A stretch of DNA of 63,676 nucleotides, the filler included. It is 10 parts of 10 records of this genome, joined end to end, with 100 filler letters (N's around TTAATTAATTAA, not from the genome) between each part and the next. Parts side by side here need not be neighbours in the genome. Positions count along the whole stretch, not along the records: positions 40,743 to 44,504 come from SRR7504441_113; 9 more parts are not named here. The stretch is one strand, 5' to 3'. The notes beneath the pieces were generated by a model. The model was not told where the DNA came from, made no database searches, and worked only from the letters and a program-made list of their open reading frames with translations. The translations under genes were made by a program, and so were the position numbers. Within the stretch, counting starts at the first letter, position 1; each line of letters starts with the position of its first letter. This document shows positions 5,986-60,534 of this stretch, piece after piece.

Positions 5986-6085
5986 NNNNNNNNNNNNNNN
6001 NNNNNNNNNNNNNNNNNNNNNNNNNNNNNTTAATTAATTAANNNNNNNNNNNNNNNNNNNNNNNNNNNNNNNNNNNNNNNNNNNN
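5986..6085. other. Artificial contig-join linker
   Basis: 44 N + TTAATTAATTAA (stops in all six frames) + 44 N. Confidence 0.97.
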
Positions 6086-13904: not shown

Positions 13905-14004
13905 NNNNNNNNNNNNNNNNNNNNNNNNNNNNNNNNNNNNNNNNNNNNTTAATTAATTAANNNNNNNNNNNNNNNNNNNNNNNNNNNNNNNNNNNNNNNN
14001 NNNN
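13905..14004. other. Artificial contig-join linker
   Basis: N44-TTAATTAATTAA-N44. Confidence 0.97.
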
Positions 14005-22815: not shown

Positions 22816-22915
22816 NNNNNNNNNNNNNNNNNNNNNNNNNNNNNNNNNNNNNNNNNNNNTTAATTAATTAANNNNNNNNNNNNNNNNNNNNNNNNNNNNN
22901 NNNNNNNNNNNNNNN
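22816..22915. other. Artificial contig-join linker
   Basis: N44-TTAATTAATTAA-N44. Confidence 0.97.
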
Positions 22916-37213: not shown

Positions 37214-37313
37214 NNNNNNNNNNNNNNNNNNNNNNNNNNNNNNNNNNNNNNNNNNNNTTAATTAATTAANNNNNNNNNNNNNNNNNNNNNNNNNNNNNNN
37301 NNNNNNNNNNNNN
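37214..37313. other. Artificial contig-join linker
   Basis: N44-TTAATTAATTAA-N44. Confidence 0.97.
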
Positions 37314-40642: not shown

Positions 40643-40742
40643 NNNNNNNNNNNNNNNNNNNNNNNNNNNNNNNNNNNNNNNNNNNNTTAATTAATTAANN
40701 NNNNNNNNNNNNNNNNNNNNNNNNNNNNNNNNNNNNNNNNNN
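40643..40742. other. Artificial contig-join linker
   Basis: N44-TTAATTAATTAA-N44. Confidence 0.97.
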
Positions 40743-40768
40743 AAAAAAAAAAAAAAAAAAAAAAAAAA
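40743..40768 (+). repeat. Poly(A) tract (at least 26 nt) at contig start, directly upstream of the retroelement leader
   Basis: Seen directly; truncated by the contig edge. Confidence 0.9.
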
Positions 40769-43700
40769 TAGGTCCAAAAAATGGGATTCGAACCCCCAAT
40801 CAGCCCCGTAGGGAAATCAAAGGTAATGATGCGAAAACATAATCGCTGAACCCCCACAAAATCGCCCAAGATGAGTCCGGTTGAAGTGGAAATCGACCTA
40901 GGTATGTCGTAAAAGGGCCTGAGCCGGGATGGTTGTACACCGGTGCACACCCCTTGGCAGCTGATTCCAGTAATTGAGCTGGAACAAGTCCATTGGGAGT
41001 GTTCGACAACCAAGACAATGAGGAATCATGGTGCTGGATCCGACCAGCAGCTTTGGAACCGACCAAACAAGCGTCGTGCTGGTACCAGGCTTAACAGCCC
41101 AGAGGAAGGTGCGACACTTCAAATGTCAACAAACAAACAAACAAATAACCAAAATGGAATCAAACATATCAAACAGTCAGGGTCCGAACAGATCGGACCA
41201 ATCAACTAGCTACGGGTTGGATGACCCGTCATCTAACTCTTCAGACCCCCAATCATGCAATTCTTCAGTAAGCGTTGAAGATGCTATGCATGAAATTATT
41301 GAAACGACTATATGCTGCTGGCCGGTTGATGGCCTCAGCAAGGAAAGAATAAAGAAAAAACTTACCGCATCGACAGACCCAGAAGTCATGCAAGGCAAGT
41401 ATAAGATTAAGCTACAAAAACACGGTGAGAAACGTCGGCTTAGAGTTGACATTTCGTTTACTTCACCATTAGATGCTGAGAGGGCAGTCAGAAAGTTGCA
41501 GTCCTGGCGCTACCGAGGGAATCGATTCTTCCCGAGGATTAAGTACAATGAGTCCTACAATGCCAGGCTAAAGAAGAGAGAAGCAACAATGACTAAGCCT
41601 AATGCCCGTAAACGGCAATACGAAGACACAGTGAAAACAGTTCCTACAAATCCTAGCATAATAACTTGGAATGTCAGATCTCTCGCTGATGCGGCGGACT
41701 ATGACAACTTCAAACGGACCGTGCAAGTCCGCAGGCCTCTGGTCATTATGGTAAATGAAACCAGGAGAACTGGCAATAGGAGCCCTGTCCATATCTCTGG
41801 GTACACCTGTAGTGAGGCTAAGTCTTTGCACACCGATCAGCGACATAATCAGCCGTCGGCTGCTGGCTTAGCGGTTTTGATCGACAACAGCCTCCCTTCT
41901 ATGGCAGTGCCGACACCGAGAATAGTGCACAACCAGTTAACTCGGCGATATAAAGGACTTTGCCTTATGAAAGCAGTAGATCCGGCAACTGGTGCTCAAC
42001 TTCTCTTTGGTGCAATCTATAAGCGACGTAGTATTGAAACCTCGGTGCTCCTAGAAACCCTGGTGGCTATCCAAAAAATGAAACTACCAACCCTGATTGG
42101 TGGCGACTTTAACCTTGAGCTGAAGGGTATCGCCGCGATGCTACGAAGGAAAGTGCTGGGTGGTCATTGGAGTAGATTGTCTGTCTCCGGATCCCCGGCC
42201 TCATGTAGAGTGCGACAACGTTGGACAGCCGTGGACCACTTTATTGTTTGCAACTCCATGGCTGAACACGTGTCTCGGCCCAGAATCGACCGGAGTTCAG
42301 TATACCCCTTCGATAGTGACCACTTCCCACTCGTCACCAAATGTAAGCTTGGCGTTACACCCTCTAAGGCGAGCATTGGCCGAGCGAAATGGATAACTAA
42401 CACCGTGAATGACTCTGTGAAGGAAGGATTCGGCATCCTTGCATGGGAGTCGACGAGAGTGAAGGGTTTGCTCGAATACGCCACTAGCCTAAGTGAGCGT
42501 GATTCTGAGTGTACCCAGAATGAAATCAATGAATTAGGCACCAAGTTCTCGAACATTGTCAACCAGGAGGGCTGTAGGCTGGGATTGCGTAACCCCCCCC
42601 GGTGTCCCCTAGGGGCCAAAACACCTCACTACTCTCGATGTTCTAGAGCATGGGTAAAACGACGATTAGAGCCATGGACAGCGTATAAGAGGGATAGACA
42701 GCCCTCCTTGCTTGCCAAGTATTACGATGCCCGAGACAGTGCTCGGGCAGCCCGTAAACGTGATATCAAACAGTACAACTCGGCCACCCAACGGAGGATG
42801 CTTGCGTTGAGAAACAGCCCTTCGGATCTCTGGAAACTTCTCAAGGAGTTTTCGGGCTCTAAGAAAGGAGTCGGGGAACGGTTGCCAGTCATTCACCCTA
42901 ACACCGGCCAATTATGCCTCACCGATGCCGAGAAGGCTGCTGCCTTCTCGGATCACTGGAGAGCAACCTTCGCCCCTCTGGAAGGGGCAAAGACGGGTGA
43001 TGAATGGAATGAGTACCTCGCGCTACCTGAAATTGATGCCCGGTTTACGAGCCTCCCCACAACTCTGGCGGAGTCGCTCAACTCGGAGATCCTACCTGGG
43101 GAAATACAAGCTGCGATCCTCAGGGCTAAGGCGGGCACTGCTCCGGGCTCAGATTCAATACCGATCGGAGTATACCGCACGCTCTTAGTGGACACTCGCT
43201 GCCTATATGGCAAAACATTTCGCTCTTCTCAACTACGAGATAATGATCCCCGAGTTGCTGAATTCATATCAGTTTATACGGATGGTGCGGCGCGCGGTAA
43301 TCCTGGTCCAGCAGGTGCCGGCATTGTCTTACGAAAAGGGAACAATGCTTTCCCAAAGAGCGATACGGATGGTGTCGGCATAGGCTCGCACCAACAATGG
43401 ATCAGTCCTAAGTCGACTAACAATATCAGTGAGGCTATTGGCATATGGCTGGCACTCGACCGACTTAGAATAGTGGTACAAAATACCACCAACGTTGTGC
43501 GGATCTCTATGCGAACAGACTCGCAGTTCATCAGAAATGCGATCCTTGGATGTTATGTGGTTCGTAACGCACACCTTAAGAGGTGGGTATCTCAGATTCA
43601 GAAAAGGATCCGCACGCTAGTGACTGACACGGGTAGAGTGTCTATCAAGCTTGAACACATCCGCCGGGGCTTTAACACAAAAGCAGATGCGCTGGCGAAC

Positions 43701-44504
43701 TTGGCAACTTCTCGAGGTATTGATGGAGAAAGAGGATGCCAGGTTGCCAGATGGCTTAAGCAGGCTGAAAGCCCCGCTGACGGTAGTGTTGTGGTATCCA
43801 ATGATGCCCCACCAGAATCTAGGCCAGCATTAGAAGAATCCCCTCTGGGTGAGCTCGTCTCGAAGCTCATTGCTCTGTTCTTCCAGGAATGTAAACTCCC
43901 AACTAGTTACCACCATAGCTTGATAGTCGAGCTGTTTAAGCGTGGAGATCCCTTGAATACCGATCAGTATCGAGGTATCTCACTCCAGCAGACTATATTC
44001 AAGCTCTTGCTCTCTGTACTAGCTAGGCGACTGCTAAACGTGTGTGAAAGTGCAAGTATAGTACACATGGAACAGGCAGGCTCCAGACTAGGAGGGGAAG
44101 CAGTCGGCCAGGTAATTGGGTTATATGAAATTTTACACCGGCGCAAGTATCGCTCGGAAGAACATGCCGATGGAGAAAAAAGGCCGATGAATAGCTTCGT
44201 CCTATTCGCAAGGACTGGGCAAGGATTGCTTCTTCGCTCTGGGCAGACGACAAGGGTCTCCGGAGGAGATCGAGAAACGGGATACAAGGACTAATCTTCA
44301 GAAGATTCACATACGGTATCAAGAGGGCCATGCCCTACGGTTGTGGATGATGGAACTACACTTGTTGCCCAGTTGGGTGGCCAAGGTTGTGAAGAATTGG
44401 ACAAGGATCTCATCGTTACTCCTCGAAGACAAAGACGTCTCGCGGCAACGCGAGATGCATTAGTGACTGACGGTGTGCCTTACCGGGTGCGCTGACGGAA
44501 CTGT
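40769..44504 (+). mobile_element. Non-LTR (LINE-like) retrotransposon, APE-type, incomplete RT
   Basis: The whole contig is intronless and visibly less GC-rich than the 5' parts of host genes. It carries one long ORF with APE, RNase H and RT motifs. Confidence 0.88.
41028..44294 (+). CDS. Retrotransposon polyprotein: RRM-like - APE endonuclease - RT region 0 - RNase HI - RT motifs 1-2 (breaks off at motif 3)
   Basis: APE: ITWNVRSL, VNETR, IGGDFN, VDHF, SDHFPL. RT0: KAGTAPGSDSIP. RNase H: YTDGAARGNPGPAGAG, NNISE, RTDS, NTKADALAN. RT: LFKRGD..YRGISL, EQAG, FVLFA. The likely start is ATG 41154. Confidence 0.88.
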   Translation: MVLDPTSSFGTDQTSVVLVPGLTAQRKVRHFKCQQTNKQITKMESNISNSQGPNRSDQSTSYGLDDPSSNSSDPQSCNSSVSVEDAMHEIIETTICCWPVDGLSKERIKKKLTASTDPEVMQGKYKIKLQKHGEKRRLRVDISFTSPLDAERAVRKLQSWRYRGNRFFPRIKYNESYNARLKKREATMTKPNARKRQYEDTVKTVPTNPSIITWNVRSLADAADYDNFKRTVQVRRPLVIMVNETRRTGNRSPVHISGYTCSEAKSLHTDQRHNQPSAAGLAVLIDNSLPSMAVPTPRIVHNQLTRRYKGLCLMKAVDPATGAQLLFGAIYKRRSIETSVLLETLVAIQKMKLPTLIGGDFNLELKGIAAMLRRKVLGGHWSRLSVSGSPASCRVRQRWTAVDHFIVCNSMAEHVSRPRIDRSSVYPFDSDHFPLVTKCKLGVTPSKASIGRAKWITNTVNDSVKEGFGILAWESTRVKGLLEYATSLSERDSECTQNEINELGTKFSNIVNQEGCRLGLRNPPRCPLGAKTPHYSRCSRAWVKRRLEPWTAYKRDRQPSLLAKYYDARDSARAARKRDIKQYNSATQRRMLALRNSPSDLWKLLKEFSGSKKGVGERLPVIHPNTGQLCLTDAEKAAAFSDHWRATFAPLEGAKTGDEWNEYLALPEIDARFTSLPTTLAESLNSEILPGEIQAAILRAKAGTAPGSDSIPIGVYRTLLVDTRCLYGKTFRSSQLRDNDPRVAEFISVYTDGAARGNPGPAGAGIVLRKGNNAFPKSDTDGVGIGSHQQWISPKSTNNISEAIGIWLALDRLRIVVQNTTNVVRISMRTDSQFIRNAILGCYVVRNAHLKRWVSQIQKRIRTLVTDTGRVSIKLEHIRRGFNTKADALANLATSRGIDGERGCQVARWLKQAESPADGSVVVSNDAPPESRPALEESPLGELVSKLIALFFQECKLPTSYHHSLIVELFKRGDPLNTDQYRGISLQQTIFKLLLSVLARRLLNVCESASIVHMEQAGSRLGGEAVGQVIGLYEILHRRKYRSEEHADGEKRPMNSFVLFARTGQGLLLRSGQTTRVSGGDRETGYKD

Positions 44505-44604
44505 NNNNNNNNNNNNNNNNNNNNNNNNNNNNNNNNNNNNNNNNNNNNTTAATTAATTAANNNNNNNNNNNNNNNNNNNNNNNNNNNNNNNNNNNNNNNN
44601 NNNN
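44505..44604. other. Artificial contig-join linker
   Basis: N44-TTAATTAATTAA-N44. Confidence 0.97.
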
Positions 44605-45276: not shown

Positions 45277-47969
45277 ATGGGGTGGAAGCGTAAGAGGAAA
45301 GGCGGCGGCGGCGGTCCGGGCAAGCGGTCCGGCGGGTCGCGGCCGGAGGTGCCCGGCGAGCGCGGTGGCGGGGCGCGTTCGGGCTGCGGCGATCCGGTGG
45401 GCAGGCAATTACCAGCTGGACGCCTTCACACGGGAGAGCCCACTGTTCGAGGGATACTACAAGGCACCGGCCGCCCCCCCGGCCCGAGCCAGCCGGCGCA
45501 GGAGGTGATTGGTGAGCCCGACTTCGAGCCGGCGATCGCGTGTCTGCGGACCGATCTGCCGTTGACATTCCGGATCCACGCCGGGTGCGAGGCCACACTG
45601 GAGCAGCTCGAGAAGACCTGGCTCCCCCAGCTGCAGGCTCCCCGCTCGGCCTCGGCCAGACCGACCGGGCGCAGGAGCTGGACCTCGGCGAGCGCGAATA
45701 TTCGCCGCCCCGGCCGCTAGCTTGGTACCCGGGCAGGCTGGGCTGGCACTTCAGCTTCACCAAGCGGGAGTTGCGCAAGAACCCGGCGGGTGGCCGGCCC
45801 AGCCAGCGGCTGAGCCTGGCTGCAGGTGCTCAAGCAGTTCCACGAATTTCTCAAGCGCGAGGAGGCGCGCGGTGCGCTCTCTAGGCAGGTGCGAGCGGCT
45901 AGTCGCCGGTGCCGGAGCCCCGTGCGCAGGAGGCCGTAAGTATGGTCCCGCCGCTGCTGCTCGGGGTGCGGCCGGAGCACCGGGTGCTGGACATGTGCGC
46001 CGCCCCCGGGATGAAGACCTCCCAGCTTCTGGAGGCACTTGCCTCCGAAGGCCTTGAGCCCCCGGGCGTCGTGGTCGCCAACGATGCGAACCGGTCCCGT
46101 GCATTCTTGCTGGCCCACACTCTCAAGCGGATGCGCACCCCGGCCTTTCTGGTAATCTGCCACGACGGGCGACAGGTCGCCCCCCGGGGCACAAGCACCT
46201 GACGCGGTGCAGGTGCCTTCGCTTGCGAGGAGGCTGCCTGATCAAGTGGCCCGCGAGCCGCTCCGGTTTGACCGGGTGCTGTGCGACGTGCCTTGCTCGG
46301 GGGACGGCACGCTGCGCAAGGCGCCGGACGCCTGGAACAAGTGGGCTCCGCACCTGGCGTTCAACCTGCACAAGGCTCAGCTTGGGATCGCTCTACGAGG
46401 CGCCGCGCTGCTCAAAGTTGGTGGACAGATGGTCTACTCAACCTGCTCGCTCAACCCGCTCGAGAATGAGTCCGTTGTGGCCCAGCTGCTCCAGGCGTGC
46501 GGCGGGGCGCTAGAGCTGGTGGACACGGCCTCTATGCTGCCGGAGCTCAGGAGAGCGCCCGGGATGGTCAGCTGGCCGCTGATCGGACTCAACAACAAGA
46601 TTTATAAAGAATTTTGCCCCGACGACGCGGCCAGCTCCAAGCTGGCTGGCCGGATGTTCGCGCCGGGCAACGCGGCTGAGCTTCACCTGGAGCGCTGTGT
46701 TCGGATCCTTCCTTCGCATCAGGACACTGGCGGCTTCTTCATTTGTCTGCTGCGCAAGCTCGCCGATCTTCCCAAGCCACAAACTGCCAGCGAGCCTGCC
46801 GAAGAGCCGGCGGCCGCAGCTGAGGAACCGGCGACTGCAGCCGCGGACGAGCCTGCAGCTGCAGAGCCGGCGACTGCAGAGGCTGTTGGCGAGGAGCCAG
46901 CTGCTGATAAAGGCAACCAATCCGAGGAGCCAGCCGCGGCCGAGGCTCCATCCGAGCTGTGTCGCGAGTTCCTCAAAGGTGCTAGGGTGTGCGCCGGGCC
47001 TGAGCCTGTGGCAGGCAAGTGCCACAGGACAAGCTGCAAGTTTGAGCACACGGAGGATCCGAGTCGGGCGGCTGTTGTGGTGCAACTGGCCTCCCGCCGG
47101 GCTGAGCAATCGGTCCAGGCCAAGGGCGGCGGGCAAGCGCAGGAGGAGCTGACGGCACTCGGACTGACTGAGGAAGGCCGGGCGATTGTGAAAGGGTTAA
47201 TTGAGTTCTACGGGCTGCCCGACAGCTTCCCGGTGCGGGCTTGGAGCGGGCTCGGGCTGAGCAGGGGGCAGGCGGAGCAAGTGTTCTCGCGGTCTTGCAA
47301 TCTCAAGCAGCTGAGCTATGTGCGCCGCTGGCTGGGGCTGGGTGTGAGGTGCTAGTCAGGTAAGCAAAGCGACCATGCAGCTGCTTCAAGCAGACGAGCG
47401 CCACAGGTCCCGCTGCCACTGCCCGGACTGATGCCGGGCAGGCTGAACGTCGTGTATTGCGGCGTGAAGGTCTTCGAGAAGACTGACGGTGCCCGAGTGC
47501 GCGCCTTGCTCTAATCGCTCGCCAGGGCTCAACTGCGACTGCGCGTATCGGATCTCGCAGGACGGGGCGCTGCTCATGCTCCCATGGGTCAAGACTCGGG
47601 CGGTGAGCAGCTCAATCGAGTTTATTTTCAAAATCCTGCAAGCTGAGAAGCATTCCTTTGACAAGGCCAGCAGCTACGAGCCCGATGGCAGCACAGTCAA
47701 GCAGTTGACAGAGCTCAGCCCTGGGAGCGTCCTGGTCCACGCTAAGGCTCCCACAGGAGTGCAGTTCTGCATAACCTTGTTCCGCGGGTGCGGGCTTGGT
47801 CGGTTGGCCGGTGAGTGTCTGCAGGTTTGGCCGGTTGTCTACCTTTGTGACCAAGGAAGAAGGGGCCGCGATCATCGAGGAGATTCGGCCGTTCGTGCCG
47901 GCTGAGGAGCTGACTGAGGAACCGGCGGCCGAGGCCGAGGCTCCGGCTCCAGCGGAGTCTACGCAATAG
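45277..47969 (+). CDS. NSUN2: tRNA m5C methyltransferase NSUN2/Trm4, many short introns, with an inserted CCCH zinc finger
   Basis: After splicing: FEGYYK, DLPLTFRI, SRQEAVSMVPP, VLDMCAAPGMKT, VVAND, DVPCSGDG, YSTCSLNPLENE, QDTGGFF, YRISQDG. Stop TAG at 47967. Confidence 0.92.
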
Positions 47970-49006: not shown

Positions 49007-49106
49007 NNNNNNNNNNNNNNNNNNNNNNNNNNNNNNNNNNNNNNNNNNNNTTAATTAATTAANNNNNNNNNNNNNNNNNNNNNNNNNNNNNNNNNNNNNN
49101 NNNNNN
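49007..49106. other. Artificial contig-join linker
   Basis: N44-TTAATTAATTAA-N44. Confidence 0.97.
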
Positions 49107-56561: not shown

Positions 56562-56661
56562 NNNNNNNNNNNNNNNNNNNNNNNNNNNNNNNNNNNNNNN
56601 NNNNNTTAATTAATTAANNNNNNNNNNNNNNNNNNNNNNNNNNNNNNNNNNNNNNNNNNNN
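56562..56661. other. Artificial contig-join linker
   Basis: N44-TTAATTAATTAA-N44. Confidence 0.97.
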
Positions 56662-60434: not shown

Positions 60435-60534
60435 NNNNNNNNNNNNNNNNNNNNNNNNNNNNNNNNNNNNNNNNNNNNTTAATTAATTAANNNNNNNNNN
60501 NNNNNNNNNNNNNNNNNNNNNNNNNNNNNNNNNN
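60435..60534. other. Artificial contig-join linker
   Basis: N44-TTAATTAATTAA-N44. Confidence 0.97.

Follow-up and report, generated by a model that had tools for sequence, protein, structure and literature searches.

A long interspersed element whose reverse transcriptase holds an archaeal-type RNase H between motifs 0 and 1

RNase H position in described LINEs and layout of the window copy

In I-group long interspersed nuclear elements (LINEs), as well as in Proto1 and Dualen, RNase H follows the reverse transcriptase (RT). According to Ustyantsev et al. 2017 (PMC5348765), ORF2 of plant and oomycete L1 elements carries an archaeal-like RNase H at its C-terminal end, and the Repbase screen presented in that 2017 paper returned archaeal-type RNase H only from plant and oomycete elements. 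Only the downstream position, in plants, is given in the relevant passage of Ivancevic et al. 2016 (PMC5203782), and in the cryptophyte Dualen elements treated by Lescot et al. (PMC5029228) the RT likewise precedes the RNase H. Oomycete Utopia is described as having an archaeal-like RNase H upstream of its RT, a position that was termed unique (Kojima and Jurka 2015, PMC4640811). Here we describe a LINE copy on contig SRR7504441_113, one part of a stretch of DNA of 63,676 nucleotides, filler included, that was analysed as a whole and is referred to as the window. The copy is read as the 5' two-thirds of a LINE with an endonuclease of the apurinic/apyrimidinic endonuclease (APE) type, in whose family the RT holds an inserted archaeal-type RNase H1 between the helices of motif 0 and motif 1, a domain that probably cuts the RNA:cDNA hybrid. 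We assign this reading a probability of roughly 0.8.

The element is encoded by the single long open reading frame (ORF) of its contig, P0001 (coordinates of all features are collected in Table 1). Alignments of P0001 to the related proteins P0007, P0009, P0017 and P0035 begin at query residues 48–53, within a region of about aa 47–169 for which no Pfam family match was obtained. A preliminary description, made from the sequence alone, had proposed a non-LTR (long terminal repeat) retrotransposon; the PF03372 domain at aa 170–390 provides the N-terminal endonuclease that characterizes APE-type LINEs, and the element is of this type. RT region 0, which had been placed at about 43100–43180, was found at 43101–43178, where it reads EIQAAILRAKAGTAPGSDSIPIGVYR (also given as AKAGTAPGSDSIPIGVYR) and aligns with K.GKAPG.DGIP.EF.KL of 9 relatives. 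The RT resumes in frame past the insert as had been claimed, reading LVSKLIALFF...LIVELFKRGD...YRGISL...EQAGSR...LYEILHRR from about 43845. This part was matched by the family profile (AVGQVIGLYEILHRRK...FVLF, E 7.6e-7), and P0003, P0004 and P0005 aligned to it in tblastn searches at E 1e-13 to 6e-15. The window copy accordingly contains RT motifs 0, 1, 2 and 2a, while the full RT is present in its homologues P0007 and P0157.

About 220 extra in-frame residues had been noted between motif 0 and motif 1, and the insert measured here amounts to about 215 residues in total, in which the RNase H is flanked by linkers on its N-side and its C-side. The distance from PGxD of motif 0 to YRGIS was 276 residues in the window copy and 262–276 in the three carriers of the insert, compared with 64–98 in the 9 insert-free relatives in which both motifs were located; the spacing was measured by a simple pattern among 19 proteins, 6 of which were not measurable. 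In the alignment the extra residues line up as a single block behind the helix next to motif 0, at a point occupied in relatives by a variable loop about 6–15 residues long. In close RT relatives this site is occupied by a short loop and no RNase H is located there.

Pfam RNase_H (PF00075, E 1.1e-8; aa 705–849) and RVT_3 (PF13456, E 7.3e-8) both matched the insert, together covering aa 705–851, within an envelope of aa 699–859 set by a local profile. The domain is complete, and the motifs quoted for its four acidic residues were located where the preliminary description had put them, the catalytic codons being Asp 43281 (YTDGA), Glu 43431 (NNISE), Asp 43518 (RTDS) and, within HIRRGFNTKADALAN, Arg 43665 and Asp 43686. 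Among sequences of solved structures the best matches were LC11-RNase H1 (3u3g, 1.3e-11) and Halobacterium RNase H1 (4e19, 1.3e-8), followed by the N-domain of Rv2228c (3hst, 1.7e-5) and E. coli RNase HI (about 6e-5 to 1e-3). In the alignment to 3u3g, the residues YTDG, NNISE, RTDS and HIRR...KAD face the catalytic D, E, D, R and D of LC11. Assignment to the archaeal-like class with an Arg-type loop was thereby borne out: D-E-D-D together with an Arg at the position of E. coli His124 was found in the window copy, P0007 and P0157, and the domain is closer to archaeal-type than to bacterial enzymes both in sequence and, on the model of P0007, in fold. The sequence and fold alignments further suggest that it is without a basic protrusion.

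Homologues and predicted structures

An exhaustive HMMER search of 1.84 billion representatives with P0001 as the query returned 2813 matches at E <= 0.001 and a single one at E <= 1e-30. This was P0007, a protein of 1482 aa (E 1.1e-57) that aligned in one stretch over query residues 51–1008 at 27–28% identity and contains APE at 116–333, RNase H at 630–766 and RVT_1 at 842–1064 (RVT_1 E 6.3e-30). A second carrier of 1544 aa, P0157, came from a word-based search in which the junction region of P0007 served as the query; the two proteins are 56% identical over that region. It is a complete ORF of a transcriptome assembly with APE at 167–392, RNase H at 690–828 and RVT_1 at 906–1175 (E 7.9e-25), and it clusters at 90% with 3 more proteins, each of them a JGI/IMG record. 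Neither protein had a match to a restriction-like endonuclease (RLE) family in Pfam. The insert is thus retained in two distant members, both of them full-length proteins, which favours the preliminary description.

Beyond these the layout is rare. A protein search with the junction region of the window copy gave 5 matches, none of them with the insert, and when the three members were combined in a profile, 17 proteins were retrieved at E <= 1e-10, P0007 and P0157 being the only carriers among them. RNase H was detected by a local scan in 11 of the 155 proteins (P0002–P0156) taken from the HMMER search, in the position between motif 0 and motif 1 only in P0007. The element represents a genuine variant in the architecture of APE-type LINEs, rare yet conserved, with its closest copies in aquatic metagenomes.

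It is unlikely that this layout has already been catalogued, as a Repbase or Dfam family or in a supplement, and is therefore real but not new. Public collections do hold P0007, P0157 and the JGI copies, under names such as 'ribonuclease HI/endonuclease...'. However, no element of the APE type whose RNase H precedes the RT or lies within it was found in the full-text literature searched, supplements, Repbase and Dfam lying outside that search, and both the 2015 statement that the position in Utopia is unique and the outcome of the 2017 Repbase screen speak against an earlier record. The preliminary claim that no described element carries RNase H between regions 0 and 1 fits this literature, with Utopia, in the passages of PMC4640811 that describe it, as a precedent for the upstream position.

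The position of the insert relative to the RT fold was examined on AlphaFold models. The P0007 piece that was modelled, with a 54-row alignment, comprised 754 residues, beginning ahead of motif 0 and closing with the thumb region, and reached a mean predicted local distance difference test (pLDDT) score of 88.3 and a predicted template modelling (pTM) score of 0.79. In this model the RNase H occupies residues 141–284, and the linker blocks at 121–140 and 301–320 have a pLDDT of about 55. The RT part matched R2 and human LINE-1 ORF2p with Z 30–35 over 467–504 residues spread along model residues 1–754 (Foldseek E 2e-21), and group II intron RTs aligned from model residue 81, which is in motif 0 and before the insert (6ar1 2–418 on 81–737). 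Residues 138–286 superposed on the RNases H of Rv2228c, Halobacterium, Sulfolobus and LC11 with Z 20.5–23.5 and a root mean square deviation of 1.4–1.8, and the Foldseek TM score of this domain was 0.86–0.92 to archaeal-type chains vs 0.67–0.72 to E. coli RNase HI. The model of the window piece (aa 601–1018) had a mean pLDDT of 76 and a pTM of 0.52, as expected for a truncated RT. Its RNase H was nevertheless folded as beta-beta-beta-alpha-beta-alpha-alpha-beta-alpha at pLDDT 70–91 and the helices of the fingers were confident, while the linkers fell below 50 at aa 680–694 (model 80–94) and aa 872–885 (model 272–285). In the predicted structures the RNase H is looped out of an otherwise normal LINE-1/R2-like RT on two low-confidence linkers, in line with the intact RT that had been anticipated.

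Origin and possible role of the insert

Judged from the alignments, the layout is old and has been maintained, in that the site and the catalytic residues (D-E-D-R-D in 3 of 3 members, namely the window copy, P0007 and P0157) are kept in proteins only 27–56% identical to each other. The identical site and the C-side linker columns that are invariant in these sequences (G770, R773, G774, E787, P809 and G814 in P0007 numbering) favour a single origin.

The insert site would be a surface loop that runs from the helix after motif 0 to the helix before motif 1. The R0 loop is described in PMC10830420, in its account of LINE-1 ORF2p, as a lid over the 5' template entering the enzyme, and as a loop that matters for template jumping. 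With its anchor point about ten residues beyond the R0 loop, the RNase H would be expected on the template-entry side of the polymerase, unlike the product-exit side at which RNase H is tethered in retroviral and I-type elements. It would cleave the RNA of the RNA:cDNA hybrid arising from target-primed reverse transcription, and since the hybrid RNA would be removed by the element's own RNase H, the element would be independent of that of the host. In the course of events that we favour, the RNase H would strip the cDNA of RNA in front of the polymerase as the second strand is made; another possibility is that its linkers of roughly 20–40 residues let it reach the emerging hybrid. The combined proposal, in which one ancient insertion placed an entry-side RNase H by the R0 lid where it degrades hybrid RNA ahead of the polymerase in second-strand synthesis, is put forward as possible rather than probable.

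Several points weigh against the reading given here and in the opening paragraph. In a backbone tree of 70 proteins, covering the endonuclease through motif 2 but not the insert columns, the window copy fell into an unresolved set of 5 rows together with P0007+P0157, P0011 and P0117 (Shimodaira–Hasegawa-like approximate likelihood ratio test, SH-aLRT, 81), and its branch was long. Of the bootstrap trees computed for 23 RNase H domains, only 2% grouped the window copy, P0007 and P0157, the window RNase H being the longest branch and joined to another long branch. The placement of the RNase H relative to the path of the nucleic acids is drawn from motif homology, and cleavage of the hybrid and mobility of the element are likewise read from sequence. 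Lastly, the window copy is without RT motifs 3–7, thumb and C-terminus, and its particular family need not still have active members.

The trees bear most directly on convergence, whereby the lineage of the window copy and that of P0007/P0157 captured archaeal-type RNases H separately into the same permissive loop. The window RNase H does stand apart from the other two in the RNase H tree, captures recur in that related LINEs carry RNase H elsewhere (P0008, P0018, P0042, P0166, P0191 and P0165), and the loop concerned is already variable in relatives. Yet the approximately unbiased (AU) test on the RNase H tree did not reject a single group (p 0.373), the three carriers occur in one small set on the backbone tree, and the site is identical and the C-side linker residues invariant across the carriers. 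Separate captures are considered unlikely and one insertion is tentatively favoured.

The insert could also have been kept for another role, such as binding of nucleic acids, primer processing or action on other substrates. Some archaeal-type RNases H also cleave double-stranded RNA, and the tether would be near the template entry, where RNA is expected to be single-stranded. That 3 of 3 members, at 27–56% identity, have retained the Arg along with all four acidic residues argues for catalysis, however, and we regard such a role as quite unlikely compared with cleavage of the hybrid.

Related LINE proteins carry an RNase H of the RVT_3 type in other arrangements. In P0008, P0018 and P0042 the RNase H comes first, at the extreme N-terminus, and is followed by APE and then RT; the three proteins form one group (SH-aLRT 98 in the backbone tree, 88/72 in the RNase H tree), and this order was not found in the literature searched. 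P0165 (1629 residues) reads APE, SET domain, RNase H, long linker, motif 0 and RT, an order unlike that given for cryptophyte Dualen in the passage of PMC5029228 on these elements. P0166 and P0191 have a C-terminal RNase H. P0002, P0048, P0052, P0101 and P0120 are without an RT and carry archaeal-type RNase H domains in tandem, two or three per protein; they belong to the closest relatives of the element's RNase H and may be its cellular source. The automatic name of a distant match, P0189, is the only source name to suggest L1.

The layout is of interest because the loop after motif 0 accommodates a domain of 200 residues and so constitutes a permissive insertion site, which may be of use as LINE and R2 proteins are engineered for gene insertion. 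It also amounts to a natural experiment on the placement of RNase H relative to the polymerase and bears on second-strand synthesis, a poorly understood step of target-primed reverse transcription. Rules of domain order by which RNase H follows RT would misclassify protist elements of this layout. Should the proposal hold, an entry-side RNase H would be the spatial reverse of the arrangement in retroviruses and I-type LINEs, where it is on the exit side, and, taken with the pre-endonuclease and post-SET relatives, the position of RNase H in protist LINEs would be far more plastic than the printed classification has it.

Metagenome copies, contig context and comparison with known systems

Logan contigs from four aquatic/marine metagenome runs were compared with the LINE contig. 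One 2200-base contig of run X2 spans 42156–44194 with 148 differences and 0 gaps and bridges both insert junctions, and in run X1, which belongs to another study, contigs extend over 42979–43521 (left junction) and 43762–44101 (right junction). The coverage across both junctions that had been named as a check is thus provided by contigs of independent runs, and as these are only about 93% identical to the window they do not derive from its sample. Of the 346 differences, 40 were listed, all of them within 41095–42440 and hence short of the RNase H coding part; 24 of these are synonymous and 25 are at third codon positions. This synonymous excess, together with 0 indels in 2039 bases, indicates purifying selection on the frame. 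A search of metagenome contigs for related loci gave 13, all of which correspond to the RNase H part only (query residues about 704–871) and none of which is a copy of the element. Contigs of X2 and X4 diverge from the window at 41114–41118, just 5' of the ATG, and another X2 contig follows the window to 40922, past these ends; the loose ends may represent 5'-truncated or differently inserted copies.

The layout of the element stood as first described, but the window copy is not whole, its RT ending at about 44207. The interval 44194–44207 was bridged by no contig of the four runs. Copies that match on the left side continue, as read by eye, with ...VDLRKAFDSV, the expected RT motif 3, and in 3 runs 44207–44504 is preceded by a different, mutually consistent sequence. 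Metagenome copies from two runs are one base shorter than the window at 44345. Past the break the family profile matched ARIASSLWADDKGL to the motif-5 region (SLWADD) weakly, at E 0.05, and this is not claimed as RT. Positions 44207–44504 may belong to a 5'-truncated copy of a related or second LINE family, and the break is most simply read as the edge of a related 5'-truncated element, nested or adjacent, as an internal rearrangement or as an assembly mis-join. The window copy is dead or incomplete, and its contig stops at 44504 without reaching a 3' end of the element. An assembly chimera in which an RNase H gene fragment was misjoined into a LINE copy is extremely improbable and, at the RNase H junctions, refuted by the bridging contigs: the LINE contig is short, isolated by linkers, lower in GC than its neighbours and has one unsupported joint at about 44207, but both RNase H junctions are bridged gap-free in two unrelated studies at about 93% identity, and P0007 and P0157, distant and from other sources, share the domain order.

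The window consists of 10 unrelated small contigs chained by 9 identical 100-base linkers (44 N + TTAATTAATTAA + 44 N), so that adjacency across them carries no meaning. The GC content of the LINE contig is 0.496 vs 0.556–0.666 in the other nine segments, and tblastn located the element in the window as a single copy. On the LINE contig, ARAGORN and Rfam gave no RNA gene, tRNA or short interspersed nuclear element (SINE), and no Rfam family was matched. The contig opens with A27 (region 40743–40794), and a tRNA box-B-like 11-mer, GGTTCGAATCC, is present as an exact match on the minus strand at 40784–40794, the sole match in the window where 0.03 were expected; the two might represent a fragment derived from a tRNA, or else the tail of an element lying upstream. 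On a neighbouring contig unrelated to the LINE, an ORF at 46156–47355 contains a VLCDVPCSGDGTLRK motif and, by eye, resembles what we take to be an RNA cytosine methyltransferase of the NOL1/NOP2/Sun type.

Table 1. Features of the LINE contig and positions of the joining linkers, in window coordinates
Feature	Coordinates	Strand	Remarks
Contig with the LINE copy	40743..44504	.	3762 b, linker on either side
Single long ORF P0001, 1046 aa	41154..44294	+	ATG at 41154; frame open from 41022
N-terminal region before the endonuclease, about aa 47-169	41292..41660	+	common to related LINE proteins
APE-type endonuclease, aa 170-390	41661..42323	+	PF03372 Exo_endo_phos, E 4.8e-9, profile 1-225 of 225
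RT motif 0 (R0/NTE-0), ...AKAGTAPGSDSIPIGVYRTLL, plus following helix	43101..43193	+	alignment with relatives
N-side linker of insert, aa 681-698	43194..43247	+	without counterpart in relatives
Complete archaeal-like RNase H, aa 699-859	43248..43730	+	Pfam, solved-structure alignment, profile envelope, model
C-side linker of insert, aa 860-897	43731..43844	+	G-x-x-R-G...E...P...G, also in P0007 and P0157
Resumed RT, motifs 1, 2, 2a to first motif 3 residues, aa 898-1017	43845..44206	+	alignment, profile
Post-break sequence	44207..44504	+	out of ORF frame; differs from continuation in other copies
Joining linkers	5986-6085, 13905-14004, 22816-22915, 37214-37313, 40643-40742		
Joining linkers (continued)	44505-44604, 49007-49106, 56562-56661, 60435-60534		

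Among described systems Utopia is the closest in the placement of its RNase H, being a non-LTR element with an archaeal-like RNase H (Arg for His) upstream of the RT that was there read as the capture of a cellular gene. It differs in having a C-terminal restriction-like endonuclease, N-terminal zinc fingers, no APE and the U2 snRNA gene as its target, and its description does not say in the passages concerned whether the RNase H stands before or after motif 0, whereas the window element is APE-type (PMC4640811). Membership in Utopia, which is NeSL-related and RLE-type, was considered and rejected: the window copy has an APE endonuclease, its homologues have APE and no RLE, and the contig has no Rfam match. 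Plant Ta11-type and oomycete L1 elements resemble the window element as APE-type LINEs with an acquired archaeal-like RNase H (PMC5348765; Smyshlyaev et al. 2013, as cited there), but according to the same description their RNase H follows the CCHC motif, while that of the window element is inside the N-terminal region of the RT. The I, Tad1, LOA, R1, ingi, Nimb, Proto1 and Dualen elements are alike in that they are LINEs encoding an RNase H of their own (PMC4640811). In the sections of these papers that treat domain order, RNase H of APE-type LINEs is put after the RT and Utopia is the sole upstream case (PMC4640811, PMC5348765), and this is the gap that the present layout fills.

At the level of the domains, the RNase H has its best sequence and fold matches in Halobacterium RNase H1 (4e19), Sulfolobus tokodaii RNase HI (3aly), LC11 (3u3g) and the N-domain of Rv2228c (3hst), but such archaeal-type RNases H1 are free-standing or N-terminal in cellular proteins and are not inserts of a polymerase. 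The RT has its best fold matches in LINE-1 ORF2p and R2 (8c8j, 9k6g, 8gh6 and 9dou), with which it shares the motif 0 lid region. These proteins differ from the window element in having no RNase H, and the two helices that flank the insertion site are directly consecutive in them.

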